Part shown: positions 5,987-52,415 of the stretch, one piece after another
Layout of the letters: each line of letters starts with the position of its first letter
How positions within the stretch are numbered: the first letter of the stretch is position 1
Source: Alphaproteobacteria bacterium
GTDB lineage: Bacteria; Pseudomonadota; Alphaproteobacteria; Rs-D84; CASDRH01
Length of the DNA stretch: 64,000 bases
Assembly (NCBI GenBank): GCA_025210155.1
Contig: JAOASE010000003.1
Coordinates: 11,519-75,518 of the forward strand
Direction: 5' to 3'
Notes under the pieces: generated by a model
Database searches by the model: none
What the model saw: only the letters and a program-made list of their open reading frames with translations
What the model was told of the DNA's origin: nothing
Program-made: the position numbers and the translations under genes

Positions 5987-6916
5987 ATGCCAAAGAAACC
6001 AACTAAAAATACTAAAGGCGCAATCAATACAAAACCTTCTCCAAAGAAGGCTGCACCTAAGAAAACATCAGTAGACTTAGAAGTTCAAGAACAAAAAGCA
6101 AGACATAAAGAGCTGTCTGAATTCCAAGGTTCAAAAGCATTAATCGCAGTTATATTAGTTGCAATCATCGCAATCGGATCTCTATTAATGAACTTATATA
6201 ACAATAGACCAATTGACTTAAGCTCAAAGAAAGTTCTATTCGTAATGACGTCTCATTCAGATATAAAATCAGATAATCCAAGAGAGACAACTGGCTACTG
6301 GTTATCAGAAGCATCTGAAGCATACGAAGCATTCAGAAACGCTGGATACGAACCAGTATACGTAAGTCCTAAAGGCGGATTACCTCCAATCGACGTAAAA
6401 AGTTTAGATTTTATAACTTATCCAAACAAAAAGTTCTTAAGAAATGAAAACGATAAACTAGTTGCAACATTCAAACCAGAAGACATCGATTATGCAAAAT
6501 ATAGAGCAATCTATTTCGTAGGTGGTCACGGAGCAATGTTCGATTTACCAAACAACGAAGCTCTACAAGAAATCACAGCTAAAATATATGACAACGGTGG
6601 TGTAGTTGCTGCAGTTTGCCACGGTGTGGCAGGTATCGTTAACGTAGAACTTAAAAACGGTAAAAAATTAGTATATGCTAAAGAAGTAACAGGCTTCACT
6701 AACGCAGAAGAAGAAAAAACAGGCTTAAAAGAAGTAATTCCTTTCATGCTTCAAAATGAATTAGAAGCTCAAGGCGTTATCTTCAGAGCAGGTAAAGACT
6801 TCCAAGAAAACGTTATAGTAAGTGGAAACTTGATAACAGGTCAAAACCCTCAATCTACTCATAAAGTAGTTCAAAAAGTTATCGATATTCTAGAAACTCA
6901 AAACTATAACAAATAG
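5987..6916 (+). CDS. DJ-1/PfpI-family (class I glutamine amidotransferase-like) protein with a basic N-terminus and one TM anchor
   Basis: AAVCHG nucleophile-elbow motif (Cys-His) of the DJ-1/PfpI/Hsp31 family. N-terminal Lys/Pro-rich segment followed by a hydrophobic helix. Terminator hairpin at about 6941-6975. Confidence 0.7.
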   Translation: MPKKPTKNTKGAINTKPSPKKAAPKKTSVDLEVQEQKARHKELSEFQGSKALIAVILVAIIAIGSLLMNLYNNRPIDLSSKKVLFVMTSHSDIKSDNPRETTGYWLSEASEAYEAFRNAGYEPVYVSPKGGLPPIDVKSLDFITYPNKKFLRNENDKLVATFKPEDIDYAKYRAIYFVGGHGAMFDLPNNEALQEITAKIYDNGGVVAAVCHGVAGIVNVELKNGKKLVYAKEVTGFTNAEEEKTGLKEVIPFMLQNELEAQGVIFRAGKDFQENVIVSGNLITGQNPQSTHKVVQKVIDILETQNYNK

Positions 6917-8179: not shown

Positions 8180-8398
8180 ATGAGAATATTAATAAAAGAA
8201 CTACTAAAAGTACTAGTCGTAGATATTGCAAAATTTGTAATAAACATAGCTAGTAAACCAGTTAAAGATATTGCAAGTAGTGTTGCAAAAGCAAGCGCAA
8301 ATGCAGTCGCAGTAAGAGCAGAAAAAACAAAAGCAGATATAAAAGAAATGATTGAATCATCTAAAGAAAAGCTGGAGGAAAAACTAAATGACAAATAA
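8180..8398 (+). CDS. Small Ala/Lys-rich protein (72 aa)
   Basis: Overlaps the next ORF in ATGA...TAA fashion, suggesting translational coupling. Confidence 0.3.
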   Translation: MRILIKELLKVLVVDIAKFVINIASKPVKDIASSVAKASANAVAVRAEKTKADIKEMIESSKEKLEEKLNDK

Positions 8399-9164
8399 CG
8401 AAATCAAAAAAGAAGTTAAGGAAGAAACTAAAAAGGTTGAAGAAGTTACAATTTCTAAAAAACCAGATTTCTTACCAAAAAAATTCTGGGATGAAGAGCA
8501 GGGCACAACAAGGCTGGAAGAAATGTCTAAAAGTTATAAAGAGTTAGAAAAAAAACTTTCTCAATTAAGCCAAGAAGTAAATTCCCTTAAGGAGGAAAAG
8601 ATAGCAGCAGAGGATAAAAATCTTTTAAAAGGAGAAAGCTTACCATCATCTCCAAAACAATACTTAGACGAAATTGATTTCGATATAATAAATGCTTCAG
8701 AAGAAATTAACCAAGTTCTTTTCGATGCGAAATATTCCGTTGAGCAAGTAAGAACTTTCTACGATGTTTTAGTTAAGTTTATAATGCCTGAAATCTTAGA
8801 GCTATATCATGATGTGAAAGCATATAATGATCTAGAAAAATTAAAGGATTATTTTGGCGGAGAAGAAAAATTTGCTTCTATCTCTAGACAGATTAATTCC
8901 TGGGCAATTAAAAACCTTGAAAGCAGAGTTTACAAGAGTTTATCAAAGGATAGCAAAGGAGTTATTGCTATGTATAAAATGATGCAAGAAGAAAAAAACA
9001 ACAATTCCTCATCAATAAATTCTCTACAAGACGGACACAAAAAAACAAGAGAAGAAGAGGAAAAACATCTTAAAGATATGATGAAAAATCCTTCTTACTG
9101 GCGAGACAAAGATCCTGAATATAGAAACAAAGTAGAAGAAGGTTTTAAGAATCTATACACATAA
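8388..9164 (+). CDS. Putative scaffolding protein (T7 gp9-like C-terminus)
   Basis: Acidic coiled-coil protein. Its C-terminal MMKNPSYWRDKDPEYRNKVEEGF resembles the T7 gp9 C-terminus (…MSDPRYRTDANYRRQVEQKV), as recalled. Lies upstream of the capsid gene. Confidence 0.55.
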   Translation: MTNNEIKKEVKEETKKVEEVTISKKPDFLPKKFWDEEQGTTRLEEMSKSYKELEKKLSQLSQEVNSLKEEKIAAEDKNLLKGESLPSSPKQYLDEIDFDIINASEEINQVLFDAKYSVEQVRTFYDVLVKFIMPEILELYHDVKAYNDLEKLKDYFGGEEKFASISRQINSWAIKNLESRVYKSLSKDSKGVIAMYKMMQEEKNNNSSSINSLQDGHKKTREEEEKHLKDMMKNPSYWRDKDPEYRNKVEEGFKNLYT

Positions 9165-9378
9165 ATTAGTATAATAAATAGTATTTAAAGTATTTTGTGC
9201 GAATAGATGTAAAGATGATTTTTATATTTGGTATTGTGTATATTTTAATACTCAATTGCCAAAGATTAAAATCATTTTTTACGATTAGCTCGTGCAAAAG
9301 AGTTTAAATAATAATAATAGCTTGAAAAAAAGAACTAATAAGATATAATACGCTCATCAAAATAAGAAAGGAGCAATT

Positions 9379-9987
9379 ATGCCTTATAACAATAACAGAC
9401 GCGGTCCATATAAAAGTAACAACCGCAGAAGAGCAAAAAGCAAAAAAGGTTTGATTTATAAAATAAACGAAAACCTAATAATGAAATGGTCAATATTATT
9501 ACTAGTTATCTTCCATTTCGCAATGAGCGCTATGTTTAGAGCAGAAAACTTAAACCAAGTATTTGGTCTATCGGCAATAGCTGAATTTGGAGTTCTATCT
9601 TTAAGAATATTCCAATCATTCTTATTCATTTTCTTACCATTAGTATTAATCAAATACTTCAAAGTTAGAAAAGCAAGAATAAGCTTAAGCTCAATAGCAA
9701 GAAAAGCAATATGCAAAAGAATTGGCCTAGCAGTATTATTAGGTCTAGCAATCACATTGCTATCATTCTTCTCACCAAACAACGGTGGAGAATTCTTAGT
9801 AAGAAGATATGTAGGAATTTTTGCTATACACTCAATCTATGTGTTCTTAATGATTTCAGCATTAACAGGAATTTGGAAAGGTTTCTCTTTCATCTTCGAC
9901 GCTGAAAAACAACAAAACAGAAGAAGAAATAACAACGGATATAATAAAAATAATAGACGTCCAAGAAGAAATTATTCTAAAAAATAA
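9379..9987 (+). CDS. Membrane protein with four TM helices and Arg/Asn-rich N- and C-terminal tails
   Basis: N-terminal NNRRGPYKSNNRRRAKSKK and C-terminal KQQNRRRNNNGYNKNNRRPRRNYSKK tails flank the hydrophobic helices. Strong SD AAGGAG. Terminator at 10017-10050. Confidence 0.5.
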   Translation: MPYNNNRRGPYKSNNRRRAKSKKGLIYKINENLIMKWSILLLVIFHFAMSAMFRAENLNQVFGLSAIAEFGVLSLRIFQSFLFIFLPLVLIKYFKVRKARISLSSIARKAICKRIGLAVLLGLAITLLSFFSPNNGGEFLVRRYVGIFAIHSIYVFLMISALTGIWKGFSFIFDAEKQQNRRRNNNGYNKNNRRPRRNYSKK

Positions 9988-10016
9988 TTTTAGTTTCTAC
10001 TGAGAAGTAATTACAA

Positions 10017-10050
10017 AGCCCTAAGTTTTCCTAGGGCTTTTTTGTTATTT
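10017..10050 (+). terminator. Intrinsic terminator (agcccta-loop-tagggct + T-run)
   Basis: Perfect 7-bp stem, 8-nt loop, TTTTTGTTATTTTT. Confidence 0.75.
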
Positions 10051-10337
10051 TTCTAAATAGCAATTAAGAGACAAACCGAAAGGTCCTCTAAACAAAAAAC
10101 AAATAAAATCAAGGCGTTTTAATCAAATTAAAACACAACCTATCGCAATTAAATAAATCAAAAAAAATAATATCACGAAAATCTTCGCAAATAAGTATTT
10201 AGGGTTTAACCGAGTATTTTGTGCGAAGGAAGGTAAAATAAATTTTAAATCGCAGGGAGTTTATAGTTAATAAATGACCAAGATTTAATAATTGTAATTT
10301 TGCCTTAAATTCGTGCAAAAGACGAAAGGTAAAAAAA

Positions 10338-11165
10338 ATGGCTAATACTATAGACCAATCATTCATAAAAAACTTCGAAGCAGAAGTTCACTTAGCATAC
10401 CAACAAACAGGTACAAAATTAAGATCAACAGTTAGAGTTAAAAACGACGTAATTGGATCAGCAACAGTATTCCAATCAGTAGGTCAAGGAACAGCATCTA
10501 CTAAAGAAAGAAACGGCTTAATCCCAGTGATGAACGCAACACACACACCAGTAGAATGTGATCTACAAGACTACTACGCAGGCGACTGGGTAGATAAACT
10601 AGATGAATTAAAAACAAACATCGACGAAAGAGCTGTTATCGCATCAGCAGGTGCATACGCTTTAGGTAGAAAAACAGATGAGCTAATCATCACAGAACTG
10701 TCTAAATCTACTCAAGAAGTTGTTGAAAATTCAGAAGGCTTAACAAAAGGCAAAATCATGAAAGCTATCGAAACATTAAACGCAAATAATGTTCCAGACG
10801 ATGGTCAAAGATATGCTGTTGTAGGCGTTCACCAATGGACTGAATTATTAAATATGCCAGAGTTCACTTCAGCAGATTACGTAGGTGATAACTATCCACT
10901 AGTTAACGGTGCAGAAGCAAGAAAATGGATGGGGGTAATTTGGATCTTACACACAGATTTGCCATTAAGCACAACAACAAGAGAATGCTTCATCTACCAC
11001 AAGAATGCAATCGGTCACGCAATCGGACAAGATGTAAAAACAGACATCAGCTGGCAAGGTGAAAGAGCTGCAAACTTTGTATCAAACTGCATGAGCCAAG
11101 GTTCAGTTCTTATCGACGCAAAAGGCGTAGTAAAAGTATCTTGCGACGACACAACATCAGTTTAA
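10338..11165 (+). CDS. Major capsid protein, T7 gp10-like (short form)
   Basis: The C-terminal GERAANF...GVVKVS resembles T7 gp10 ...ERARRANF...AVVFKV. Position between the scaffold and gp11-like genes. A strong terminator follows immediately, as Tφ follows gene 10 in T7. Confidence 0.6.
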   Translation: MANTIDQSFIKNFEAEVHLAYQQTGTKLRSTVRVKNDVIGSATVFQSVGQGTASTKERNGLIPVMNATHTPVECDLQDYYAGDWVDKLDELKTNIDERAVIASAGAYALGRKTDELIITELSKSTQEVVENSEGLTKGKIMKAIETLNANNVPDDGQRYAVVGVHQWTELLNMPEFTSADYVGDNYPLVNGAEARKWMGVIWILHTDLPLSTTTRECFIYHKNAIGHAIGQDVKTDISWQGERAANFVSNCMSQGSVLIDAKGVVKVSCDDTTSV

Positions 11166-11189
11166 AAACTGCTTGAGATATAGAATATA

Positions 11190-11216
11190 AGACCGTTTTC
11201 AAAGCGGTCTTTTTCT
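11190..11216 (+). terminator. Intrinsic terminator directly after the capsid gene (agaccg-ttttcaaag-cggtct + T)
   Basis: 6-bp stem plus T-run. Same position as T7 Tφ. Confidence 0.7.
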
Positions 11217-11374
11217 CATTTAAAGCATACATTTTGAATCAACACTTTAACTAATTTACAATATCCAAGTTGACTCAACACTTCAATTGAATCAATTAAT
11301 TAAGAATATAAGCCTAAGAATCGGAAAAGACTCAAACTTTAACCAATAAAATCACCAATTTACAGGAGAACAAA

Positions 11375-11953
11375 ATGCCATCATCTACAACAAAAATCGA
11401 TATTTGCTCAAAGGCCTTAATGAAGATAGGAGCAAGTCCAATCCAATCACTAGAAGAGAATACTTCAGAAAGCATTATCTCATCTCAATTTTATGACATA
11501 GTAAAAGAGAGTTTATTATCAGAACATGAATGGTCTTTCGCAACAAAAACACAGGAATTAAATATCCTGAATGTAGAGAGTGATCAAGAAGGATACGAGA
11601 ATGTTTTCCAATTACCACATGACCTAATAAGAGTGTTAAGCATAAGCTCTTCAGCAAATGGAATTTCTATAGACTATAAACTTTATCAAGATGAAATTCA
11701 TACCAACGCAGAGAAAGTTTATATCACATACATATATAGAGTCGGAGAAAAATACTTTCCTCAATTCTTTGTAAATTTAATGACTACTTCTTTAGCAAAA
11801 GAATTTGTTATGCCACTGACGGAAGATAACTCAAAATATAACTCATTAATGAACGAAAGTATAATGCTTTTATCAAAAGCTAAAAACCAAGATTCAGATC
11901 AAACAAAAATTAAAAAGATAAAAACATTTAGTTTAATTTCAAGCCGTAATTAA
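11375..11953 (+). CDS. Tail tubular protein A (adaptor), T7 gp11-like
   Basis: 192 aa (T7 gp11 is 196 aa). ICSKALMKIGASPIQSLEE...SEHEWSF resembles gp11 VNDILASIGEPPVSTLEG...SRGWTF. Confidence 0.7.
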   Translation: MPSSTTKIDICSKALMKIGASPIQSLEENTSESIISSQFYDIVKESLLSEHEWSFATKTQELNILNVESDQEGYENVFQLPHDLIRVLSISSSANGISIDYKLYQDEIHTNAEKVYITYIYRVGEKYFPQFFVNLMTTSLAKEFVMPLTEDNSKYNSLMNESIMLLSKAKNQDSDQTKIKKIKTFSLISSRN

Positions 11954-11981
11954 AAAATTAAATTAATAAAGGATACAATAT

Positions 11982-14063
11982 ATGCAAAAGTCATACACAA
12001 AAAGCAACAACTTCAGATTTGGAGAAGTGAATTATTCTGGCTTAGAGAACTTAGGATCCAAGTATAAAAACAATACATCTTTCCTTCAAAGAAATATGCA
12101 GGTAGAAGAAACTGGTCAAATCAAACGAAGACCTGGATTAAAGAAAATTTCAGACCTTGAAGAGAATGCTAAGATTATTTCTATGCAGACTAGCATAGAA
12201 GACAAATATATTTTAGCTATAGGAGAAAGTAAGATAAGAGTTTTCAAGGACGATAAGCTAATCTGTACAATATCAAAAAGCCCCTTTAAAAAAGAAATAC
12301 TTTCAAGTTTGCAATATATCTCTAAAGATAATAAAATTTTCGTTACCCACCCAGACATAGAAACAAAAGTCATAGTAAAAGAAAGCGATACTAATTGGAA
12401 AATTCAAAATATAGAATTTGATATAGATTCTTATACGGGTGAAAGTTTTGAGCCATTCGCATACTTTGAAGATATGCAAAATAAAGGTATAAAAGCAACT
12501 CCTATAATAATAGATCCAGAAGATTTAGATTGGGATCAAGAGGGCGCTGGTGAATGGGTTTTAAATCCAGATTGGATGGAGAGAAATGAACCAGCATATA
12601 CTTTCGTAGAGGACGAATCTACACCTCCCCCTCAAGTAGAAATAACATGCTCCGATATATATGATATATTCAATTTCGATTGCAAAAATATAAAAATGAG
12701 AATTGGAGATGGGGAATATCGAATTACCCACGTAGTAACAACAAGGAAGTTACTAGGAGAAATAATAAAGCTTCCTACTGATTTTAAAGAGAAAAATCCT
12801 TCAGTCTCAGAACAAGCCTTTTCAAAAAAGCGAGGTTGGATAAGAAGTATAAATTTCTATCAAAACAGAATGGTGGTAGGTGGATCAAAATCGCTTCCCA
12901 AAAGAATATGGATGTCTAAAACAGATAACTTCTTTAATTTTAATTTAGGATCAGCATACGATGGAGATGCTATAGAATTTGATATACTTTCCCAAAATGA
13001 AGAAACTATTCAAACAATATTTACAGGAAGACATCTTCAGGTTTTTACAAATAATGCTGAATGGATAGTAACAGGATTTCCTATCACACCAACTAGTATA
13101 CAATTGCAGAAACAAACAGAACTAGGTTCAAACCAAGACAACTATCTTAGCCCTCAGTTTATAGAAGGTTCTACAATTTTTATATCTAAGAACAAATCAG
13201 AAGTTTGCGAATTCTTCTTTGGAGAAATAGAGGAGCAATATCAAACAGAAAACCTAGTTAGCTTATCTAATCATTTATTAAATAAACCACTAGAAACATC
13301 TTACAATAAAAATGAAAAAATATACTTTATAGTAAACAACGATGGAAGCCTAGCCACATTGACCATGAGTAAAAATTATGGAGTTAGATCTTGGGGACTA
13401 TGGGAAACAAAAGGTTCATTTATCTCAGTGGAAAGTTTGAATGAAGAAACTTATGTGGTAGTAAGAAGAAACGACAAACCATATTTAGAAAAGTTTGATT
13501 TCACAGAATTAAATACCTATACAGATTGCGAGATTACCATATCCAGAGAGGATGATAAAAGAGATAATATATTTGAAATTATAGATTATCCAGAACTTTT
13601 AAAAATAAAGGACTTAAAAGAGCAAACTAATGCAATAATTTTAGCAATAGGAGACGGCGAATTCCTAGGAGAACCTATCATAGAGAATGATGCTATAAAA
13701 CTTCAAAAACCAGTTAACAATCTAAGATTAGGAATAGCATATAGGCATATCCTTGCTCCATCACCAGAGATGATAGAATTTAAAAAGATAAGATTGCTGG
13801 AAGTTTCTTTCAGATTATCAGAAAGTAAAAACCTTTCAATAGATACTGGGCAAGGAATAAAGAATATATCATTAAAAGAATACGATAATTCAGAAACATT
13901 CCTTTCTTCAGAAAATATAAAAGGAACTTTCTCAGGGGATATAAATATAAAATCATTCGGATGGAAAAAAGCAGGAAGCCAAATACTTTGGAAAATAGAT
14001 GATTATTATCCAAACAATTTCAAGGTAATTTCATCACTCTCAAAATTTATTGTAAATAAATAA
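11982..14063 (+). CDS. Tail tubular protein B (nozzle), T7 gp12-like
   Basis: 693 aa. N-terminal ETGQIKRRPGLKKISDL...KIRVFKDDK resembles gp12 ETEGLQKRPPLVFLNTL...GIRVFDLSGNEK. Internal FYQNRMVVGGS...NFFNFNLGS resembles gp12 FFRNRLGFLSG...KYFNFYPAS. Confidence 0.7.
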   Translation: MQKSYTKSNNFRFGEVNYSGLENLGSKYKNNTSFLQRNMQVEETGQIKRRPGLKKISDLEENAKIISMQTSIEDKYILAIGESKIRVFKDDKLICTISKSPFKKEILSSLQYISKDNKIFVTHPDIETKVIVKESDTNWKIQNIEFDIDSYTGESFEPFAYFEDMQNKGIKATPIIIDPEDLDWDQEGAGEWVLNPDWMERNEPAYTFVEDESTPPPQVEITCSDIYDIFNFDCKNIKMRIGDGEYRITHVVTTRKLLGEIIKLPTDFKEKNPSVSEQAFSKKRGWIRSINFYQNRMVVGGSKSLPKRIWMSKTDNFFNFNLGSAYDGDAIEFDILSQNEETIQTIFTGRHLQVFTNNAEWIVTGFPITPTSIQLQKQTELGSNQDNYLSPQFIEGSTIFISKNKSEVCEFFFGEIEEQYQTENLVSLSNHLLNKPLETSYNKNEKIYFIVNNDGSLATLTMSKNYGVRSWGLWETKGSFISVESLNEETYVVVRRNDKPYLEKFDFTELNTYTDCEITISREDDKRDNIFEIIDYPELLKIKDLKEQTNAIILAIGDGEFLGEPIIENDAIKLQKPVNNLRLGIAYRHILAPSPEMIEFKKIRLLEVSFRLSESKNLSIDTGQGIKNISLKEYDNSETFLSSENIKGTFSGDINIKSFGWKKAGSQILWKIDDYYPNNFKVISSLSKFIVNK

Positions 14064-14150
14064 TATTAACTATTGATTTAAACTTTCATATGAGTAAACT
14101 ACGATGAGTTATTTTATATAACTAAATTTAAATATGAAGGAGAAATCATA

Positions 14151-14429
14151 ATGAAAAAAGTATTACTTACAGCTATTATAGCTTTAACAGCATCATGTGC
14201 TACAAGACCTCACCAAGTTACTAACGTTAAAGTAGCTCCAAGTGAATTAAAAGTTGGAAAATCTTGTGAAGATAGATTTTTACACATGTTCCCAATGGGT
14301 TCAAAAAATGGAAACTCAATTCTTAGAGCTAAAGAAAGTGCTGGTATTACACAAATTATGAGTGTCGATGTAGAAGGTAGAAACTGGATCTTAGGTTCAA
14401 CTGAATGTACTATCGTTACAGGTAAATAG
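14151..14429 (+). CDS. Small lipoprotein (signal peptide plus lipobox LTASC)
   Basis: MKKVLLTAIIALTASC. Strong SD AAGGAGAAATCATAATG. Own terminator hairpin at about 14445-14480. Confidence 0.5.
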   Translation: MKKVLLTAIIALTASCATRPHQVTNVKVAPSELKVGKSCEDRFLHMFPMGSKNGNSILRAKESAGITQIMSVDVEGRNWILGSTECTIVTGK

Positions 14430-14516
14430 TTTACAAAACTAAAGAATTAAAATTACAGTCGGAAATATCCGGCTGTTTTTTTTATACAATAATCAATCAC
14501 AAAAGGAGAGATAAAG

Positions 14517-14993
14517 ATGATATCACTAATATCTAGTGTCAACTCACTAGGATCTGATCTAATTTCAGGGAGCAGTTCAAAGGACGAAAGCCGATTGGCT
14601 AGAGAAAGAGCAAAAGAAGAAAGCAAAATAAATAAAGAAATAGCAGAAGTTAATAAGTACTATTCTGATTTAGAAAGTAGAAATCTTTTAGAAGAAAATC
14701 TAAGCAATATTTCAGCAAACTACGGAGCTTATAATATGAGTTCTACAGAAGGTTCTGCAAAAGCCGCAAAGAATAGAGCCGTTAGAGATTACAATAATGA
14801 CACAGCTCAAAGGCAAAAGCTATTTGATCTAAATATGGAAAAAGCAGACAAACAACTTCAATTTGATACAGAGGCAAATCTATTAGAATATGATAAAAAT
14901 TCTAAAAGAAATAGCCTTAACAATTTCGAAAATATATTAAAAGAAATCGAAAGCCACGACGAAACTCTAAGATCTCAAAGATATAGAACATAA
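14517..14993 (+). CDS. Hypothetical coiled-coil protein (phage module)
   Basis: SD AAAGGAGAGATAAAGATG. No recognisable motif. Confidence 0.4.
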   Translation: MISLISSVNSLGSDLISGSSSKDESRLARERAKEESKINKEIAEVNKYYSDLESRNLLEENLSNISANYGAYNMSSTEGSAKAAKNRAVRDYNNDTAQRQKLFDLNMEKADKQLQFDTEANLLEYDKNSKRNSLNNFENILKEIESHDETLRSQRYRT

Positions 14994-15005
14994 AGGAGAG
15001 AAAGT

Positions 15006-15719
15006 ATGATAACTAACAAATCAGTCCTAATAACATACCTAGCAAATGGAACTTCAAAACAATTTTCATTCCCATTTAAAATATATTCAGCAGATGAATT
15101 AAAAGTGTCCATAAATGGAAAAGAAATACAAACTACATTCATTATAGAATATCACGAAGATGTAGAAGGTGGAATGATAACATTTGAAACAGCTCCAGTT
15201 ACAAATTCAGAAGTCTCAATCAAGAGAGTTCTAGATATTACGAGAAAGCACGACTTTCAATCAGGTGGAAGCTTCAGAGCTGAAGACATAAATCAAGAAC
15301 TAGACTACCAAACTCTGTGCCTTCAACAAGTTAATTACGAACTTGGGAATGCAATGAAATTTGGATCAGATGTCGAAGATCAAGATATAGACTTAACTGT
15401 TCCAGAACCAAAAGCGGGTTGTATGATGGTTTGGAACAAAACAGAAAATGGACTAGAACTAAGAAACGCTGACCTAATAATAGAAGCAAGCAATGAAGCT
15501 CATGACTATGCAACTATCTGCCAAGATATGTACGATGCAATGTCTACATTATTAGGAACTTCAGAGACAGCGGGTTTAGCAGGAAAAATCCAAGACATAT
15601 TAACTTTCTTAAATAATAAATTCCCAGAAGACTTTGATGATAATGGTGAGATAAAAGATAGCTCATTAGTATCTAATGACTTAGGAGAAATCACAGAAGG
15701 CGATAATGGCGGAATTTAA
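15006..15719 (+). CDS. Tail fibre protein, N-terminal (tail-attachment) domain only, T7 gp17-like
   Basis: MITNKSVLITYLANGTSKQFSFPFKIYSADELKVSING...VSIKRVLDITRKHDFQSGGSFRAEDINQ parallels T7 gp17 MANVIKTVLTYQLDGSNRDFNIPFEYLARKFVVVTLIG...IELRRVTSTTDRLVDFTDGSILRAYDLN. The protein is 237 aa against 553 aa for gp17. Confidence 0.7.
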   Translation: MITNKSVLITYLANGTSKQFSFPFKIYSADELKVSINGKEIQTTFIIEYHEDVEGGMITFETAPVTNSEVSIKRVLDITRKHDFQSGGSFRAEDINQELDYQTLCLQQVNYELGNAMKFGSDVEDQDIDLTVPEPKAGCMMVWNKTENGLELRNADLIIEASNEAHDYATICQDMYDAMSTLLGTSETAGLAGKIQDILTFLNNKFPEDFDDNGEIKDSSLVSNDLGEITEGDNGGI

Positions 15720-16347
15720 AGATGAAAAAAATTTAAAAGAAAATATAGAAAAAATAACATTTTTAGATTTCATAGAATTATGGAATCAAGATCAGGAGCA
15801 AACAACTCCTGCCCACCATAAAAAGATTGCACGGTGGTTAGAAAAATTATGGCTTGAAGAAAAGTCAGACAGAAGAGGGGTTTTAATGTCCTTCAGAGGG
15901 TCAGGTAAATCTACCATAGTAGGTTTATTCTGCTGTTGGCTACTTTATCAAAACCCAAATCTAAGAATATTGGTAATATCAGCAGAAGAACGCCTAGCTG
16001 GTAAAATGAGCAAAAATGTCAAAGCCATAATAGAAAGACATGCGCTGCTTTCACATCTTATACCAAAGAAAAAGGGAGGGCGATGGGCAAGCAAAGAATT
16101 CACCATAGAAAGGTTCAAAGAAATGAGAGACCCTTCAATGCTTGCCATAGGACTTTCAGGAAACGCAACGGGATCTAGAGCCGATATAATAATATGTGAC
16201 GATGTCGAAGTCCCAAATACTTGCGATACTGAATTGAAAAGAGAAGAGTTAAGAGAGAGATTGGCAGAGTTAGAATTTATAATAACGCCAAAAGGAATGA
16301 TTCTATATGTGGGTACTCCCCATACAGAAAATAGTATTTATTATTAA
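15706..16347 (+). CDS. Terminase large subunit, ATPase domain (T7 gp19-like), N-terminal ORF of a split gene
   Basis: Walker A FRGSGKST and Walker B IIICDDVEV. LRILVISAEER, TGSRADIIICDDVEVPNT and LYVGTPHTE match T7 gp19 LKILIVSASKER, TGSRADIIIADDVEIPSN and IYLGTPQTE. Ends with TAA at 16345-16347. Confidence 0.85.
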   Translation: MAEFKDEKNLKENIEKITFLDFIELWNQDQEQTTPAHHKKIARWLEKLWLEEKSDRRGVLMSFRGSGKSTIVGLFCCWLLYQNPNLRILVISAEERLAGKMSKNVKAIIERHALLSHLIPKKKGGRWASKEFTIERFKEMRDPSMLAIGLSGNATGSRADIIICDDVEVPNTCDTELKREELRERLAELEFIITPKGMILYVGTPHTENSIYY

Positions 16348-16681
16348 AAAAAGAATCAGTAAAAGGGAAATATTCATTTTTGGACAAAAAAATATGTCAA
16401 GAAAGTTCTAAGAAAAAACAGTGGCTTACAACTTAAAAATAAGAAAAATGAAAAAAATGTCAAAAAATAGTTGACAAAATAAAATGAAAGTTCTAAACTA
16501 AACTTACTTTCGGAGATCTCCCTACTTATTTCTCTCTCCTCTTTAAGAAGACTCCGAAAGTTCTTTTTAATCCTCGGAGTTTCCTTTATATATCCTTTCC
16601 TCCTTTTTTTAAGAGCTCCGAGGTTTATTTAAAATGCGCCGCAAGGCGTTTTTTTATTGTCTAAAATCCAGGGGAGAATAA
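16348..16681 (+). other. 334-bp non-coding insertion splitting the terminase gene; carries two ~64-bp tandem hairpin repeats, a TTGACA-N17-TAAACT promoter-like site and a GCAA-tetraloop terminator
   Basis: Hairpin A 16506-16561 (actttcggag / ctccgaaagt, 10 bp, 36-nt CU-rich loop). Hairpin B 16572-16623 (cctcggag / ctccgagg, 8 bp, CU-rich loop). Units A and B align as direct repeats. 'gaaagttct' occurs three times. Terminator 16636-16657 (cgcc-gcaa-ggcg + T7). Then the SD GGGGAGAATAAATG. Confidence 0.6.
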
Positions 16682-17551
16682 ATGCAAAAGATTTACAACA
16701 AAACAATAGATAACGAATTAAAACCTAAAGAAGAAGAAACAGAAAAGCTTCTATCAGGATATAAAAGATTAAAAATTCCTTTGTTATCAGAGGCTGGAAG
16801 ATCAGCTTGGTCAAAAAGATTTCCTCTGAAAAGAATTAAAGAACTTCGTAAACGAGTAGGGGAAAAGAAATTCCAAGCTCAAATGCAATTACAACCAGTA
16901 AACTTAACAGATCCATTTTTCGATATAAATGATTTCAAAACATATGACATATGCTTTTCAAAAACAGAGCAAAACTTCCGATCAGTCTATAAAATTAATA
17001 ATGAAAAAGTCGTCCAGGCCTCATCCTATTGGGATCCATCTTCATGTGGAAGAAAAAGAGACGGTTCAGTTCTAGTCATAGCATTCAAAGATAACAAAGA
17101 CAGAATATACATAGAAAAAATCATATACTTAAACTCAATTATCAAAAGAGGCGAGGAAGGAATAACGAAACAAATAGAAGAAGTTATTTCTATATTAAAA
17201 AAATACGATATAGGAATAATTCACATAGAAACAAATGGTATAGGGAAATTTATCCCAGAATTAATAAACAAGGAAATTCGCCGACTACGACTAAAAATAG
17301 AAGTCTCAGAAATTTATAATCATAACAGCAAGAGTATAAGAATTATGGAAGGAATAGAACCTCTAGTTTCAGCAGAAATAATAAGCTTTAATAAAACAAT
17401 ATTTTCTAAGGCAAATCAGTTCATAAATGAAATTAAAAATTGGCGACCAAACATAGACGGAAAAGATGATGGATTGGATGCCGTTTCAGGCATAACATTA
17501 AATAGGTTTAAGAATATAATTCCATCACCATCAATTATGAAATTTTATTAA
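16682..17551 (+). CDS. Terminase large subunit, nuclease (C-terminal) part, T7 gp19-like
   Basis: RIKELRKRVGEKKFQAQMQLQPVNLTD matches T7 gp19 [28 protein letters not shown]. An in-frame TAA lies immediately upstream of the ATG. Confidence 0.75.
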   Translation: MQKIYNKTIDNELKPKEEETEKLLSGYKRLKIPLLSEAGRSAWSKRFPLKRIKELRKRVGEKKFQAQMQLQPVNLTDPFFDINDFKTYDICFSKTEQNFRSVYKINNEKVVQASSYWDPSSCGRKRDGSVLVIAFKDNKDRIYIEKIIYLNSIIKRGEEGITKQIEEVISILKKYDIGIIHIETNGIGKFIPELINKEIRRLRLKIEVSEIYNHNSKSIRIMEGIEPLVSAEIISFNKTIFSKANQFINEIKNWRPNIDGKDDGLDAVSGITLNRFKNIIPSPSIMKFY

Positions 17552-17630
17552 AACTTTTTACTTTTATAAATATATGATTTTTGTTATAATAAAGCCAAAA
17601 TATACTAATAATTTTAAAAGGAGTTAGATT

Positions 17631-18077
17631 ATGACAAAATTCAATCAAAGAGGTAGAAGTATTGTAGAAGTTATCGGTGTTCTAGCAATAGCTTCAATCG
17701 GTATCGCTCTTGCAATGAGAACTTATCAAAAGAATGATGCAAAAGTAAAAATTACAAAGACTATGTATAATATTTCAGAATTAACAGATAGTATTAAAAC
17801 TATATACTGGGGAAGAAACAGCTATAGTGGAATAAATGTTACTCGTCTAGAAAATAAAGGTGTGGATCCTAAATTCTTAAGAGATGCATATGGTACAAGT
17901 TTAGTAATAGGTTCTCAATCTCCATTTAGTTCATATACAATCCAAATTGTAAATATTGAAGATCAAGAAGATTGCTATAAATTTGCTGCTAAAAAACTAG
18001 AAGGTATGGATGAAGCTGAAACGACAGATACATGCTCATCTACATCTAATAAAACAGTTACTTTCACTTTTAATTAA
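17631..18077 (+). CDS. Type IV pilin-like protein (prepilin-type N-terminal domain), tandem paralog 1
   Basis: N-terminus MTKFNQRG|RSIVEVIGVLAIASIGIALA: a Gly followed by Glu at +5 and a hydrophobic helix, as in class III signal peptides (KGFTLIELMIVVAII...). SD AAAGGAG. Confidence 0.55.
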   Translation: MTKFNQRGRSIVEVIGVLAIASIGIALAMRTYQKNDAKVKITKTMYNISELTDSIKTIYWGRNSYSGINVTRLENKGVDPKFLRDAYGTSLVIGSQSPFSSYTIQIVNIEDQEDCYKFAAKKLEGMDEAETTDTCSSTSNKTVTFTFN

Positions 18078-18089
18078 GGAATTTATAAG

Positions 18090-18557
18090 ATGAGAAAAAA
18101 TAATCAAAAAGGTATGTCTATCGTAGAAGTTTTAGGAACTTTAGCAATAGTAACAGTAATGTCAGTTCTTATAGTTTCTTTCTATACGAAAGTATCTACT
18201 AAAGCTACATTCAAAAGAACAGAATTCTTATTAGAAGATATTAGAGGAAAAATAAATTCTATTTATATAGATGGTAATTATTCAACTCTAACACTAGATA
18301 ATTTAAATGATGAACTAGAAGGCCAAGAATTAATAAAAGCAAAGCACCCATTCGGTGGAGACGTTGCTCTTTGCGGTTCATCAGACGGTTTCAATATCCG
18401 TTTAAGTGACCTAACTCTTGAAGAGGCTACTAAATTAGAAGCACTTGGAGAAGGTGACTTAGAAAAAGTATCAGACGATGTTTATAGAATAATTGCTTAC
18501 AAATCTAATAGTAAAGCAAAAGATTACGACAACACAAGATTTTGTAACAACTTCTAA
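18090..18557 (+). CDS. Type IV pilin-like protein, tandem paralog 2
   Basis: MRKNNQKG|MSIVEVLGTLAIVTVMSVLIV, the same architecture. Followed by the terminator 18584-18608. Confidence 0.55.
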   Translation: MRKNNQKGMSIVEVLGTLAIVTVMSVLIVSFYTKVSTKATFKRTEFLLEDIRGKINSIYIDGNYSTLTLDNLNDELEGQELIKAKHPFGGDVALCGSSDGFNIRLSDLTLEEATKLEALGEGDLEKVSDDVYRIIAYKSNSKAKDYDNTRFCNNF

Positions 18558-18583
18558 TAAAGTTTAAACAAAACTAATGAAAA

Positions 18584-18608
18584 CGCCCTCAATTGAGGGT
18601 GTTTTTTT
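18584..18608 (+). terminator. Intrinsic terminator (cgccctcaattgagggtg palindrome + T7)
   Basis: Perfect palindrome followed by a T-run. Confidence 0.75.
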
Positions 18609-18793
18609 ATAAAAAACTTCATCAAGCAATCTCTCCCCAGAGAGTTTTGGATAGTTTGCTTTAGATAGAAGCGAAAATGATTTTTAAATTTAATATTGCG
18701 TATATTAATACTCAATCGTTGAATTTCAAAATTATTTCTCGCGATTAGATGAAGTTAAATATACGAAACATTAATATTATAAAGGATAATTAA

Positions 18794-20329
18794 ATGAAAA
18801 AAATACCAGAAATAAACTCAAACTTAATAAATAGAGATACTCTAATTAAAGAATATAAAAAGGCAAAAAACAAAAGAAGCAATTGGGAAAATCTTTGGGA
18901 AGATTGCATAAAATATTCATCCCCAGAAAGATATGGAAGCTTCTATAACTCATTCCAAGAAGCTAATAAAAACAATGTAGATATCTACGACTCAACTGCA
19001 ATTTGCGGGGTAGAAAATTTAGTATCTACAATAGCTTCAAGCCTAACACCATCATATGAAAAATGGTTTAATTTATCTCTAGGAAATATCACTGTTGAGG
19101 ATGAAACAACAAAAGCAAATATTGAAAAAGATATAGAGAAAATAGAAAAAACAATTTCAGAAAATATCTCACTTTCAAACTTCGCGACAGAAATACAACA
19201 ATGTTACTTTGATCTAGTTACATTGGGAACCTCTTGTCTGTTCTTCGAAGAAAACCAAATAGGTAAAAAATCTGCCTTCAGGTTTAAATCAGTTCCATTA
19301 AACCAACTGACTATAGATGAAGACAGCGAAGGTAACGTAAATAAAATCTATAGAGAAACAAGCATAACGGTAGAAAATCTACAACTTCGTTTCCCAGAAT
19401 TTTTTGAAGAAAATGGTTTAAGTAACCTCGCAACAAAGTTCAAAGAAGAGCGAGTTAAACTGATTGAAGCTGTAGTCCCTAATATGAAAGAAATAGGACA
19501 GCAAGGCTTTGTATATACAGCATTTATAGAAGATGAAAAAAATATCCTTACACCTAAAAAATCAGCAAAAGAAGATAACATATTAGTATTAAAAGAAGGT
19601 GTCTTACAAAGCTCTCCATTCATTTGTTTCAGATGGTTAAAAACCTCAAGCGAAGTATATGGAAGATCACCGGTAATGAAGGTTCTTCCAGATATCAAAA
19701 CAGCAAACAAGGTTGTAGAACTAACTTTACAAAACGCAACAATAGCAATCTCAGGAGTATGGCAAGCTGAAGACGACGGAGTAATTAACTTTAATAATAT
19801 TGATCTGTCACCAGGTTCAATAATACCAAAAGCAATAGGCTCTCAAGGTCTATCACCATTACAAACAGGAGCTAACTTCAACGTTTCACAACTAGTCCTT
19901 TCAGACTTAAGAAACAATATAAATAAAGCGTTCTATACAGATGTTCTAGGTAAGCCGGAAGAAAGCAAACAAATGACTGCAACAGAAGTTTCTGCAAGAA
20001 CAATGGAATTATATCAAACACTTACAGCAGTGTTCTCACGACTTCAAACGGAACTCCTTACACCATTAATCGAAAGAGCAGTAAGCATCCTTAAAAGAAG
20101 AGGGGAGATAGCAAACCTAATCATAGATGGAAATATAATCTCATTAAAATACAGTTCACCAATAATGAACGTAAACAACGACAGAGAAATAGCAAACATC
20201 CAAAGATTTATATCTTCACTAAGCATTCTAGGAGAAGGTCAATTATCCAACATAATAGATACACAAAAGTTAATAAACCACCTAGCAGAAATCACATCCA
20301 TCCCAAAAGGATTGCTAAAAACAGCCTAG
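18794..20329 (+). CDS. Portal (head-to-tail connector) protein, T7 gp8-like
   Basis: 511 aa (T7 gp8 is 536 aa). The N-terminal YKKAKNKRSNWENLWEDCIKYSSP...IYDSTAICGVENLVSTIASSLTPSYEKW parallels gp8 RLKNDRAPYETRAQNCAQYTIP...WQAVGARGLNNLASKLMLALFPMQTW. Confidence 0.7.
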   Translation: MKKIPEINSNLINRDTLIKEYKKAKNKRSNWENLWEDCIKYSSPERYGSFYNSFQEANKNNVDIYDSTAICGVENLVSTIASSLTPSYEKWFNLSLGNITVEDETTKANIEKDIEKIEKTISENISLSNFATEIQQCYFDLVTLGTSCLFFEENQIGKKSAFRFKSVPLNQLTIDEDSEGNVNKIYRETSITVENLQLRFPEFFEENGLSNLATKFKEERVKLIEAVVPNMKEIGQQGFVYTAFIEDEKNILTPKKSAKEDNILVLKEGVLQSSPFICFRWLKTSSEVYGRSPVMKVLPDIKTANKVVELTLQNATIAISGVWQAEDDGVINFNNIDLSPGSIIPKAIGSQGLSPLQTGANFNVSQLVLSDLRNNINKAFYTDVLGKPEESKQMTATEVSARTMELYQTLTAVFSRLQTELLTPLIERAVSILKRRGEIANLIIDGNIISLKYSSPIMNVNNDREIANIQRFISSLSILGEGQLSNIIDTQKLINHLAEITSIPKGLLKTA

Positions 20330-46185: not shown

Positions 46186-46380
46186 AATTTAATCCTTAAT
46201 ATTTTGCTAAATTATATAAAAATAAAAAAAATACTGCAATAGATAAAAATAATTTTCCAGTTCTTACAAAGACTTAAAAATCCACCTAAAATAAAAATTA
46301 AAAAAAATATAAAAAAACAAAAAAAAATGTTGCAATTCAATTTTATATCCATATAATACTCTCAGACATGGTTAATAAGT

Positions 46381-46456
<76 letters not shown>

Positions 46457-49603: not shown

Positions 49604-49903
49604 TTGGATATTAAAACATCAGTTAAAGCATTTTCTGCATTAGCCCAAGATACCAGATTAGAAATAGTAAGGTTATTGGAGGAACACAATTCTGAAGGTC
49701 TTTGTCCTTGCAATATATTGGAGAAAATTGATTTAACAAACGCAAACTTATCATTCCACCTAAAAGAATTAGAAAACGCTGGTTTGGTAAGAAAAGAAAA
49801 AAAAGGTAAATTCGTTCACTATTATGCTGAATGTGAGTTCATCAGAGAGCTTGGAAACTTTCTATTAGGCAAATGCGAATTTACAAAAACAAAAAGCAAA
49901 TAA
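49604..49903 (+). CDS. ArsR/SmtB-family transcriptional regulator
   Basis: ALAQDTRLEIVRLL wHTH start. LCPCNI metal/oxidant-sensing Cys pair. 99 aa. Confidence 0.8.
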   Translation: MDIKTSVKAFSALAQDTRLEIVRLLEEHNSEGLCPCNILEKIDLTNANLSFHLKELENAGLVRKEKKGKFVHYYAECEFIRELGNFLLGKCEFTKTKSK

Positions 49904-49923
49904 TAAAGTAGGGGGATAGAGCC

Positions 49924-50367
49924 ATGTTAAAGAAAACTATGTTAATTGCGGTTTCAAGTTTAGTATTGCTAACAGCATGTAAACAAGAAACTAAAAAGTC
50001 AGCAACTGCTGAACAAATAAAACAAGAGATTGTTAAAAACAACTCCCTTAATAAATCTACAATTTATTACTTCCACGGAAACAAGAGATGTCAAACTTGT
50101 CAAAAAATAGAGGCGTATACTCAAGAAGTTTTTGATAACGAATTTAGAGATACTCTTGATATGAAGTTAATAAATCTAGATGCTCCAGAAAACAGACACT
50201 TTATAGAGAAGTACAATTTATATAGCAGGTCTGTTGTCTTAGCAAAAGCTGAGAATGGACAAGAAGTAGATTTTAGAAATCTTGATAAAGTTTGGGTCAA
50301 AGCAGGTGACAAACAAGATTTTCAAAACTACATAACAACAGAGGTGAAAAGCTTCTTATTTAACTAA
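49924..50367 (+). CDS. Thioredoxin-fold CxxC lipoprotein
   Basis: Lipobox LLTAC and IYYFHGNKRCQTCQK (Trx-like F....CxxC). Confidence 0.45.
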   Translation: MLKKTMLIAVSSLVLLTACKQETKKSATAEQIKQEIVKNNSLNKSTIYYFHGNKRCQTCQKIEAYTQEVFDNEFRDTLDMKLINLDAPENRHFIEKYNLYSRSVVLAKAENGQEVDFRNLDKVWVKAGDKQDFQNYITTEVKSFLFN

Positions 50368-50383
50368 ATCGTAGGAAAAGGAT

Positions 50384-50764
50384 ATGTACAAAATACTAGC
50401 ACTAGCTGGTATAGTCATCCTTGGATTTGCAATGAAAATCTTTAATAAAGATTACAGTGGAAATAAAAACCTAAAGGTTTACCACTTCTATCATAATCCC
50501 TATGGCTATACTTGCTCAGAAGCAGAAAGATGTATTAAAGAAATAGTAAAGGAATCAGATAAAGATCTTACCTTCTCATCTATAAATACATCAGAGGATA
50601 ATAAAGACTACATAGATGGATATCATCCAACCCAAAAAGAAGTAGTTATTTATAATCCTAACACAGAAGAATATAAAGTTTCATCTATCAGAAATCTAAT
50701 CAAAAGAGGTGCAACTGATAGTGAAGTAAAGCAACAATTCACAAAAGAATTAGATTCTATATAA
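50384..50764 (+). CDS. Membrane-anchored thioredoxin-fold-like protein, paralog of the preceding ORF
   Basis: N-terminal TM. VYHFYHNPYGYTCSEAERC aligns with IYYFHGNKRCQTCQK. Similar downstream pattern. Confidence 0.4.
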   Translation: MYKILALAGIVILGFAMKIFNKDYSGNKNLKVYHFYHNPYGYTCSEAERCIKEIVKESDKDLTFSSINTSEDNKDYIDGYHPTQKEVVIYNPNTEEYKVSSIRNLIKRGATDSEVKQQFTKELDSI

Positions 50765-50777
50765 GAAGGAGGAAAAA

Positions 50778-52415
50778 ATGATAATAGAACTATTTTTAGC
50801 ATCGCTATGGCTTGGAATATTGACATCAATAAGTCCATGCCCTCTAACGACAAACATCGCCGCGGTATCATACGTTGGACAAAAGGTTAGTAAACCATCC
50901 CACGTATTATTATCAGGTCTGTTTTATACTTTAGGAAGAGCATTCTTATATACAGTATTAGGATTTGCTTTATCACTAAGTGTAAGCTCAATACCAGTAG
51001 TTTCACAATTTTTACAAAGTCAGCTAGCTTACATAGCAGGACCATTACTTATAGCTATTGGTTTAATGATGCTAGGTGTGATAAAAGTAAAACTACCTAA
51101 ATTTCAAATAAAAGAGAAGTCTCAAGAGAACCTACAAAAGAAAGGTTTGCTAGGATCATTTTCACTGGGCGCACTATTTGCCTTGATGCTTTGTCCAGTC
51201 TCAGCTGCATTATTCCTGGGACATCTAGTACAAACACAAGGAAATATTCCAGCATTAATTGTTTACGGTATAGGTACAGGTATTCCAGTTATCATATTAT
51301 CATTCGTAATCGCCTTTAGTGTAAAGAATGTATCTAAAGTATATAACAAACTTGCTACTTTCGAAAAGTGGGCTAGAAGAATTACGGGCGTATTATTTAT
51401 GTTTGCAGGATATCACTACTTAGCACCAATGATTAATATAAACCTTAATATATTATCATTGTTCACGCTATTAGCAGATTACTTAGCATATGATCTACTT
51501 AATCTAGTGCCAGGATCTCACTTTGGTCATGCCGTTCACTTCTTCATAGAAGACGTTACTAAAATCCTATTCTTACTTACGGTAATGATAACAATAATAT
51601 CATTCTTTAGATCTCATCTTAAACCAGAAAAGATTAGAGAATACCTAGAGGGTAAACCAAAATGGATGGCATATATAATGTCCGTAGGTTTAGGAGCCGT
51701 AACACCATTTTGCTCATGCTCATCAATTCCATTGTTCATTGGCTTTGTAGAGGCAGGTATCCCATTTGGTGTAACAATGGCATTCTTGATAACATCTCCA
51801 ATGATTAACGAAATCGCCATAGCAGTCTTAGCATCCATAATAGGTTGGAAAATAGCGGTGGTATATGTCCTTACAGGAATGGGAGTTGGTATCATCGGTG
51901 GACTATTAATGGAAAAATTAGGCTTTGCAAAGTACGTAGAAGAATATGTATACAATATCAAAATGGGTAAAAACAATGTTGTAGAAGAAAAGATTTCAGG
52001 ATTTAAAGAAAGACTTTCATACGCATTCGAATACGCAAAAGATATGCTTAAAAAGATATGGCTATATATAGTTATAGGTATTGGAATAGGGGCCGCAATA
52101 CATGGTTTCGTTCCACAAGAATTCTTCGCAAAGTATGCAAGTGCGGATAATCTGTTCGCAGTACCTCTAGCAGTAATTCTAGGTATTCCTCTATACTCAG
52201 ATGCAACAGGAGTAATACCTATCGCAGAATCTTTGTTAGGTAAGGGCGTGCCAATTGGAACTGTACTAGCCATGATGATGAGTGTGGTTGCAGTATCACT
52301 ACCAGAAATGATTATCTTAAGAAAGGTGCTTAAACCAAGACTTATAGCATACTTCGCAACATTCCTATTAATAGCATTTATATTTGTAGGATACCTATAT
52401 AACGCAATATTTTAA
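50778..52415 (+). CDS. Fusion protein: CcdA/DsbD-like thiol-disulfide transporter domain (N) plus ArsP/DUF318-family permease (C)
   Basis: N-terminal ISPCPLTT (TM1 Cys) and LMLCPVSAA (TM4 Cys), as in CcdA. C-terminal half has TPFCSCSSIPLF, the conserved TPFCSCS motif of ArsP/DUF318 permeases. 545 aa. Confidence 0.65.
   Translation: MIIELFLASLWLGILTSISPCPLTTNIAAVSYVGQKVSKPSHVLLSGLFYTLGRAFLYTVLGFALSLSVSSIPVVSQFLQSQLAYIAGPLLIAIGLMMLGVIKVKLPKFQIKEKSQENLQKKGLLGSFSLGALFALMLCPVSAALFLGHLVQTQGNIPALIVYGIGTGIPVIILSFVIAFSVKNVSKVYNKLATFEKWARRITGVLFMFAGYHYLAPMININLNILSLFTLLADYLAYDLLNLVPGSHFGHAVHFFIEDVTKILFLLTVMITIISFFRSHLKPEKIREYLEGKPKWMAYIMSVGLGAVTPFCSCSSIPLFIGFVEAGIPFGVTMAFLITSPMINEIAIAVLASIIGWKIAVVYVLTGMGVGIIGGLLMEKLGFAKYVEEYVYNIKMGKNNVVEEKISGFKERLSYAFEYAKDMLKKIWLYIVIGIGIGAAIHGFVPQEFFAKYASADNLFAVPLAVILGIPLYSDATGVIPIAESLLGKGVPIGTVLAMMMSVVAVSLPEMIILRKVLKPRLIAYFATFLLIAFIFVGYLYNAIF

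Follow-up and report, generated by a model that had tools for sequence, protein, structure and literature searches.

To our knowledge, all characterised tailed-phage terminases carry their ATPase and their nuclease on one chain. The closest described relatives of the system analysed here are the T7-type large terminases (TerL), represented by T7 gp19 and PhiV-1 TerL (PDB 4bij, 8dgc). In a 64,000-nt stretch of an alphaproteobacterial genome (GenBank assembly GCA_025210155.1, contig JAOASE010000003.1, positions 11,519 to 75,518; hereafter the window, whose own numbering is used throughout), a TerL of this type is encoded by two separate genes of the chromosome. The ATPase motifs, the acidic residues of the RNase H-type nuclease and the order of the segments are those of the family, and all family features tested were found, except the presence of both domains on one polypeptide. 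The locus further differs from T7-type TerL in its total length (~500 residues versus 586) and in its location in a bacterial chromosomal cluster without replication genes. TerL reading frames interrupted by introns or inteins are known, an example being the TerL inteins of actinobacteriophages (bioRxiv 10.1101/2025.01.02.630785); such insertions are taken out of the RNA or of the protein to give one chain, whereas here there is no splicing element and the genes are independent. No description of a naturally split terminase was found in the open-access literature. The explanation that we favour, with a probability of roughly 0.7, is a two-gene split TerL working as two chains, accompanied by an independent small-RNA gene in the spacer and located in a chromosomal cluster that resembles a gene transfer agent (GTA). 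A first-pass annotation of the same DNA had noticed the interrupted gene; what is new is how old and how widely shared the split is, its location ahead of the Lid subdomain, the small-RNA gene and the GTA-like chromosomal context.

The first open reading frame (ORF; 15706-16347, forward strand, 213 aa) encodes the RecA-like ATPase core and the second (16682-17551, forward strand, 289 aa) the other part of the protein. The two ORFs are in different frames and are separated by exactly 334 nt, with many stop codons between them. The first ends with TAA at 16345-16347, and the second starts at an ATG (16682) preceded by the Shine-Dalgarno (SD) sequence GGGGAG at 16671-16676 (start region 16671-16684). 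Both match the same terminase profile, phrog_38, the first at profile positions 259-459 (E=5e-52) and the second at 467-699; the latter also matches PF22530, the T7 terminase RNaseH-like domain. The first ORF aligns with residues 52-210 of the T7-like TerL 8dgc_E, ending at ...GTPQTEMTLY. Alignment with gp19 reproduces the register proposed in the first-pass annotation, in which the ATPase ORF stops where gp19 reads GTPQTEMTLYK, and agrees with its claim that homology resumes in the ORF starting at 16682. In the ATPase piece, aligned with T7 gp19 and 8dgc_E, we identified Walker A (FRGSGKST), Walker B with the catalytic Glu (ADIIICDDVEVP) and the C-motif (GTPH), and the second piece retains the acidic nuclease motifs YWDPS, IETNGIGK and KDDGLDAV. 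None of these motifs is damaged in any split form examined. A phmmer search of the nuclease half against PDB gave no match, and its homology came from profile and fold searches: AlphaFold2 (AF2) models the second piece with an RNase H fold that starts near residue 86 (nuclease region 16937-17551, assigned from motifs, AF2 and Foldseek), and its top Foldseek matches are T7-like TerL 8dgc_E and the nuclease domains of RB49 gp17 and Sf6 gp2.

The earlier description of a gene divided between ATPase and nuclease is right in that the split is real, but the cut does not fall exactly at the domain boundary: piece 1 ends 8 residues after the ATPase C-motif and not at the classical flexible ATPase/nuclease hinge. 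The ~80 residues that follow the break, comprising a variable acidic linker, a strand (...RLKIPLL) and two helices (RIKELRKRVGEKKFQAQMQL), are located at the N-terminus of piece 2. By position in the alignment and in the AF2 models, these N-terminal ~85 residues (16682-16936) are predicted to be the Lid/linker subdomain of the ATPase domain, as named in work on the P74-26 and Sf6 terminases; a break so soon after the C-motif puts this predicted Lid on the nuclease chain. In the AF2 model of a fused homologue, P0130, the equivalent point lies in a loop (residues 200-226) after the C-motif strand, and the strand and two helices are modelled at 227-267 with a predicted local distance difference test score (pLDDT) of ~90. 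When piece 2 is modelled alone, its residues 1-30 are disordered and residues 31-80 have pLDDT of 58-72. The break falls in a variable surface loop. The dipeptide IY stands on both sides of the break in the window (...NSIYY* at the end of piece 1, MQKIYNKT... at the start of piece 2), in agreement with the first-pass impression that no coding sequence had been lost. In four lineages piece 2 opens with a version of the IY(K) motif that closes piece 1 (MQKIYNKT, MNKIYNKT, NNLYNKK and DIVYKKF). This points to an original event that copied a few codons, as insertions do; the duplication of 2-4 codons could be a relic of such an insertion. No convincing terminal inverted repeats were found at the gap.

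The split is shared by many related loci. Among the 120 top-scoring homologues of the ATPase piece (49-67% identity), about 55 end 11-17 residues beyond GTPH (...TIYKV*), and the remaining ones run on into ...TIYADEPR.EIGE..PFL.GF.RL.IPLLD... and the nuclease domain. A scan of alphaproteobacterial species-representative genomes, with one genome per species, gave at least 591 stretches matching the T7-like cluster to which the two genes belong; of the 80 best of these loci, 3 are split, and in the other 77 TerL is one ORF of ~500 aa. In a neighbour-joining tree, one branch divides all 79 fused sequences from all 22 split ones, a topology that a single splitting event would explain. The stop or junction of the window also occurs in more than 20 related loci and in independent assemblies (P0002, L013 and L014; L numbers denote related loci), a recurrence that excludes the assembly error considered in the first-pass annotation.

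Every split locus with sufficient flanking sequence also has the second piece, at a variable position. The halves are 256-334 nt apart in the window, L012 and L013, with the small-RNA spacer between them; 3.3 kb apart in L008-L011, where DnaB, a helix-turn-helix protein and a 213-aa gene lie between them on the opposite strand; 4.2 kb apart in L005, L006 and L019, separated by small RNAs, tRNA-Phe, FtsZ and the portal gene; and 8.1 kb apart in L053, with several ORFs and tRNA-Phe between. No cis-splicing, bypass or restart can join halves that are separated by kilobases or by genes on the opposite strand. This arrangement bears on the idea that the protein is rejoined, either at the RNA level, for which the first-pass annotation considered a small self-splicing intron, or by translational bypass or a split intein. 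In its favour, a 334-nt spacer has the size of a small group I intron, and the coding sequence is complete. Against it, no group I or group II intron model matches positions 15000-18500 at E<=10 and none reaches its gathering score in the window, the frames differ and many stops intervene, the IY junction is duplicated rather than interrupted, and the spacer carries a promoter and a terminator of its own. A split intein was also rejected as a candidate in its own right: the end of piece 1 and the start of piece 2 lie inside TerL-homologous sequence, with no intein-like residues appended. We give rejoining almost no chance.

Purifying selection acts on both halves. Comparison of the ATPase half between L004 and L001 reveals 15 synonymous and 0 nonsynonymous differences, and the ratio of nonsynonymous to synonymous substitution rates (dN/dS) for other pairs within the split clade is 0.07-0.2. 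For the nuclease half, the window and L014 differ by 20 synonymous and 5 nonsynonymous changes (dN/dS 0.06), and the window and L013 give dN/dS of 0.12 with synonymous sites saturated (proportion of synonymous differences pS = 0.58). Neither a frameshift nor an internal stop is observed in more than 20 split loci with saturated synonymous sites. Judged from these comparisons, the split is old, clade-wide and kept by purifying selection on both halves. Of the explanations listed in the first-pass annotation, a two-piece terminase is the one borne out by the clade-wide split, the halves lying kilobases apart, the purifying selection and the intact catalytic motifs. These data leave little room for decay, that is, for an insertion that inactivated the terminase and left two ORFs as remnants of a dying prophage without joint function. 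Such a history would fit a genome that appears small and AT-rich (a contig that measures at least 1.05 Mb, with 31% GC), a nuclease half annotated merely as hypothetical, and relatives in which the cluster is rearranged and interrupted by cell genes; the dN/dS values of 0.06-0.2 for both halves, the full set of catalytic motifs and the undamaged reading frames make it improbable.

Alternatively, the halves would no longer cooperate: the ATPase core alone would package DNA, like a motor that has no nuclease, and the Lid-nuclease protein would have taken another role, or the reverse. The very different evolutionary rates of the halves and the unconserved gene order between them could be read in this way. 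On the other side, wherever both halves are visible, they lie within the structural cluster or beside it, close to the portal gene. In addition, the ATPase piece is without a Lid, a subdomain that covers the active site of P74-26 TerL and is required there for both ATP hydrolysis and subunit contacts (PMC5389665). Such a division of roles is, in our opinion, quite improbable.

The two-chain terminase can be pictured as follows. The TerL gene would have been broken once, in one lineage of T7-like elements, in the loop after the C-motif, and the pieces would have been kept apart since then, one providing the RecA-like ATPase core and the other the Lid/linker with the RNase H nuclease. The two polypeptides most likely re-associate non-covalently into a working terminase. 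From the alignment and the single-chain models we infer that the strand and helices of the Lid segment in piece 2 may dock on the ATPase core of piece 1, holding both chains together. Both the two-chain assembly and its terminase activity are predictions from conservation. Models of DNA translocation give the Lid/linker a mechanical role, as a lever in P74-26 TerL and through inter-domain motion in T4 gp17. If a selected break between the RecA core and the Lid is confirmed, the covalent link would be dispensable, and the split proteins would offer a ready-made system for the study of force-transmitting contacts and of the gating of nuclease activity.

The 334-nt spacer is predicted to hold a conserved independent small-RNA gene with its own promoter, hairpins and intrinsic terminator, all on the forward strand. 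The gene starts with a near-consensus sigma-70-type promoter, TTGACA-N17-TAAACT (16471-16499), which is conserved in L013 and L014. The predicted transcript of ~150 nt (16504-16657), defined by fold and conservation, contains hairpin A, hairpin B and a terminator hairpin. Hairpin A (16506-16561, 56 nt) has a 10-bp stem, ACTTTCGGAG/CTCCGAAAGT, and a 36-nt loop resembling an anti-SD sequence, AUCUCCCUACUUAUUUCUCUCUCCUCUUUAAGAAGA, with the CU-rich stretches ...CUCCCUACUU...CUCUCCUCU...; hairpin B (16572-16623, 52 nt) has an 11-bp stem, CCTCGGAGTTT/GAGCTCCGAGG, and a 30-nt loop, CCUUUAUAUAUCCUUUCCUCCUUUUUUUAA, with the CU-rich stretch ...UUUCCUCCUUU.... The intrinsic terminator, GCGCCGCAAGGCGT followed by TTTTTTT (16636-16656), is conserved in L013 and L014, and a U-run after hairpin A (16562-16569) may yield a shorter form of the RNA. 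The 154-nt stretch folds with a minimum free energy of -41.3 kcal/mol (z-score -5.0 versus shuffled sequences). The pattern TCGGAG...CTCCGA occurs 2 times in the window versus 0.02 expected. A scan of the gap for tRNA and transfer-messenger RNA found none, and an Rfam search of the gap and the gut-lineage spacer with permissive thresholds gave only chance-level matches, with no intron, riboswitch, ar14 or other small-RNA family.

The promoter, the hairpins and the terminator with its seven T residues had all been listed in the first-pass annotation and are real; what had escaped it is that together they make up a small-RNA gene. Its description of the hairpins as two tandem repeats of ~64 bp holds for the hairpins themselves and for their shared architecture and arms, but these are not sequence repeats, and neither Tandem Repeats Finder nor blastn-short pairs them. 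The three copies of the 9-mer GAAAGTTCT that it reported in the gap were found (at 16401, 16486 and 16556); the window has 7 copies in all versus 1.6 expected, the others being at 6229, 8751, 43464 and 43881. L013 retains two of the gap copies, those within the promoter spacer and within the 3' arm of hairpin A. The copy at 16401 lies in the poorly conserved 5' part of the spacer (16348-16470), which also contains, at 16383-16411, a degenerate direct copy of the promoter region 16473-16499 (GACAAAAAAATATG...GAAAGTTCTAA) that is not conserved in L013.

Conservation follows the limits of the predicted gene. Between the window and L013, identity is ~95% from the -35 box to the T-run of the terminator (16471-16657), even though the flanking nuclease gene is saturated at synonymous positions, and roughly half of the positions match in the 5' part of the spacer, as judged by eye from the alignment. 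Over 8 distinct sequences of hairpin A, 8 of 11 pairs have changed on both sides while 94% of the cells remain paired; none of 500 shuffles reaches this covariation score, and the signal collapses when the partner strand is slid. The loop of hairpin A is nearly invariant among relatives. The one hairpin of L012 has kept the 36-nt loop on a stem with compensatory changes, and it comes with its own promoter and U-run. In the gut lineages, TTGACA-N17-TATAAT and an RNA of ~135 nt directly follow the ATPase stop codon; the terminator hairpin of this RNA presents the loop AUUCCCUCCUUAUUUUCUCUCUC(UC)CUC, and a second RNA carries a counterpart of the hairpin B loop, ...CCUUUCCUCCUUCUCUCCUC.... The noncoding region after the ATPase gene in these lineages is ~0.7-0.9 kb long (L005 6810-7030 and 7280-7415; L001 6850-7260), and it contains a tandem repeat of ~120 bp, further conserved blocks and the second promoter-hairpin-terminator RNA with the type B loop. 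In L053 the two small RNAs are convergent.

A hairpin scan of all loci found such elements in the split type only, with none in the 77 fused-type genome loci. The loop A pattern gave 53 matches in metagenomes, of which 9 are genuine and 44 are chance matches to sequence resembling a ribosome-binding site on the other strand; all 7 genuine copies with enough flanking sequence stand ~200 nt after a split ATPase ORF. IMG/VR has no match to the pattern. Every occurrence of the RNA in the data searched immediately follows a split ATPase gene. Within the 64-kb window, neither a pattern search nor blastn-short revealed a further copy of the gap or of one of the hairpin units, and the genuine copies elsewhere are all at the orthologous site. 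Together with dN/dS values of 0.06-0.12, this distribution speaks against the earlier suggestion of pseudogenisation by a miniature mobile element, for which further copies had been proposed as the sign. The RNA gene would have stayed directly downstream of the split ATPase gene, with the 334-nt spacer outside the expression path of the protein.

The loops of the RNA contain CCUCC and CUCCC, and in relatives also CCUCCUUA, which is the 3' end of 16S rRNA. Given these anti-SD-like motifs, the likeliest action of the RNA is therefore in trans, and its loops would most likely pair with purine-rich ribosome-binding sites. When 91 translation starts were tested with RNAduplex and both strands were scanned for ungapped complementarity, the matches were at most 12-15 nt long and resembled ribosome-binding sites. 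Best pairing with both loops was observed for the ribosome-binding sites of an operon at 49604-52415, which encodes an ArsR-family regulator, two small ORFs and an ArsP-type permease; this probably merely reflects strong SD sequences.

Pairing in cis between the loops and the SD sequence of the nuclease gene, which the first-pass annotation had proposed as a regulated translational restart, is not predicted: the loops stay open in a fold that includes this SD, and the nuclease start ranks 14 of 91 for loop A and falls outside the top 14 for loop B. The same results count against the view that the hairpins and terminator are a 5' leader or attenuator of the nuclease mRNA, for example with the loops masking GGGGAG. 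What speaks for a leader is that in the window, L013 and L014 only ~25 nt separate the terminator from the nuclease start, with no promoter-like site between, and transcription must cross the element. On the other hand, the SD is not conserved in L012 or L013, and the RNA of the gut lineages and of L053 stands apart from the nuclease gene, with other RNAs, tRNA-Phe and FtsZ coming after it. We consider a cis-regulatory leader unlikely. The nuclease gene of the window has no promoter of its own, and its transcription would have to read through the terminator of the RNA; this may keep the nuclease below the level of the ATPase.

Among described RNAs, the closest in design are the cuckoo RNAs (ar14/RSs0680/CcsR), which share with the spacer RNA adjacent hairpins, conserved C/U-rich anti-SD-like loops, compensated stems and a terminator (PMC4615179). 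They have 2-4 adjacent hairpins of 24-50 nt with loops of 9-27 nt, every loop containing CCUCCUCCC (PMC4615179), whereas the RNA described here has no CCUCCUCCC, loops of 30-36 nt, hairpins of 52-56 nt, no Rfam match and a fixed context after the split TerL ATPase. The phi29 motor offers another parallel, with a packaging ATPase (gp16) that is not covalently tied to a working nuclease and a structured small RNA from the same element; it differs in that gp16 is without an active nuclease, whereas the nuclease half is kept here, and nothing links the present RNA to the motor. The phi29 pRNA rings up through complementary loops. A ring-forming role of this kind was considered for the spacer RNA and ruled out, both loops being pyrimidine-rich and unable to pair with each other. 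The spacer appears to represent a new, well-supported family of small RNAs with unusually large anti-SD-like loops, in lineages where we know of almost no regulatory RNAs.

Several observations weigh against the combination of a two-chain terminase with a functional small RNA. Between sublineages, identity is 33-41% for the nuclease half versus 50-67% for the ATPase half, and this much faster evolution of the nuclease could mean a relaxed or changed function. The C-terminal tail of the nuclease half in the window is shortened in the alignment. A search of the 64 kb gave no specific target for the loops, their best partners being ordinary strong ribosome-binding sites. Finally, L008-L011 are split and yet have no detectable copy of the RNA, so the gene can be split without it.

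The window belongs to the chromosome of an uncultured alphaproteobacterium, known from a metagenome-assembled genome, and is not a phage genome; it carries a T7-like structural-gene cluster. Its housekeeping genes, among them those for phosphofructokinase, TsaD, a PBP5-type carboxypeptidase, amidase and biotin ligase, flank the cluster on either side according to their Pfam matches. The cluster (8388-20329, forward strand) consists of structural and packaging genes only, and the same cluster is found in relatives. Besides the two TerL genes, it includes forward-strand genes for the scaffold (8388-9164), the capsid (10338-11165), a 693-aa protein (11982-14063), a protein with the T7 tail-fibre N-domain (15006-15719) and the portal (18794-20329); the scaffold, capsid, tail-fibre and portal assignments are from Pfam. 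Between the nuclease piece and the portal gene there are two ORFs, paralogues of each other, whose N-termini carry a type IV pilin-like methylation motif (17631-18077 and 18090-18557, forward strand), and L013 has ORFs of like size at this site. No integrase or replication gene was seen in the cluster of the window or in that of L096, and cell genes flank both.

Among the carriers of the ~12-kb cluster counted above are the complete genomes of Micavibrio aeruginosavorus and Terasakiella, and many uncultivated virus genomes of ~12.3 kb in IMG/VR carry it. Micavibrio aeruginosavorus, Terasakiella, Rhodospira trueperi and Elioraea tepidiphila, all cultivable, have the fused form. Carriers group at the genus level in the TerL tree. 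In content and distribution, and as far as genes alone can tell, the cluster resembles a GTA. The likeness to the RcGTA-type agents of Alphaproteobacteria consists of a compact ~12-kb cluster of structural genes only, flanking cell genes, occurrence in many species and purifying selection; the difference lies in its podovirus (T7)-type genes, compared with the HK97/siphovirus-type genes of RcGTA. RcGTA-type clusters were not found in the lineages that host the T7-like cluster (table in PMC6821227). The cluster looks like an independent, podovirus-derived GTA-like element, and it may be an independent phage domestication in Alphaproteobacteria. No description of a T7-like cluster of GTA type was found in the open-access literature.

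A wider interpretation, which we put forward tentatively as possible but doubtful, is that of an undescribed T7-derived GTA-like family in hundreds of alphaproteobacterial species, including Rhodospirillales-type lineages, Micavibrio and gut or host-associated clades. One sublineage of this family would have a two-chain motor, and the RNA at the break point would regulate the element or serve the motor.

The surroundings of the split genes vary in other respects. In the split lineages, cell genes sit inside the phage-derived cluster (~7300-9300 in L001-L006, 10600-17200 in L053 and 2716-5970 in L008-L011), and tRNA-Phe, on either strand, and full-length FtsZ are found between the ATPase piece and the portal gene. 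Elsewhere in the window, an A-rich tract of ~40 nt (46288-46327) is located immediately upstream of tRNA-Thr (46381-46456).

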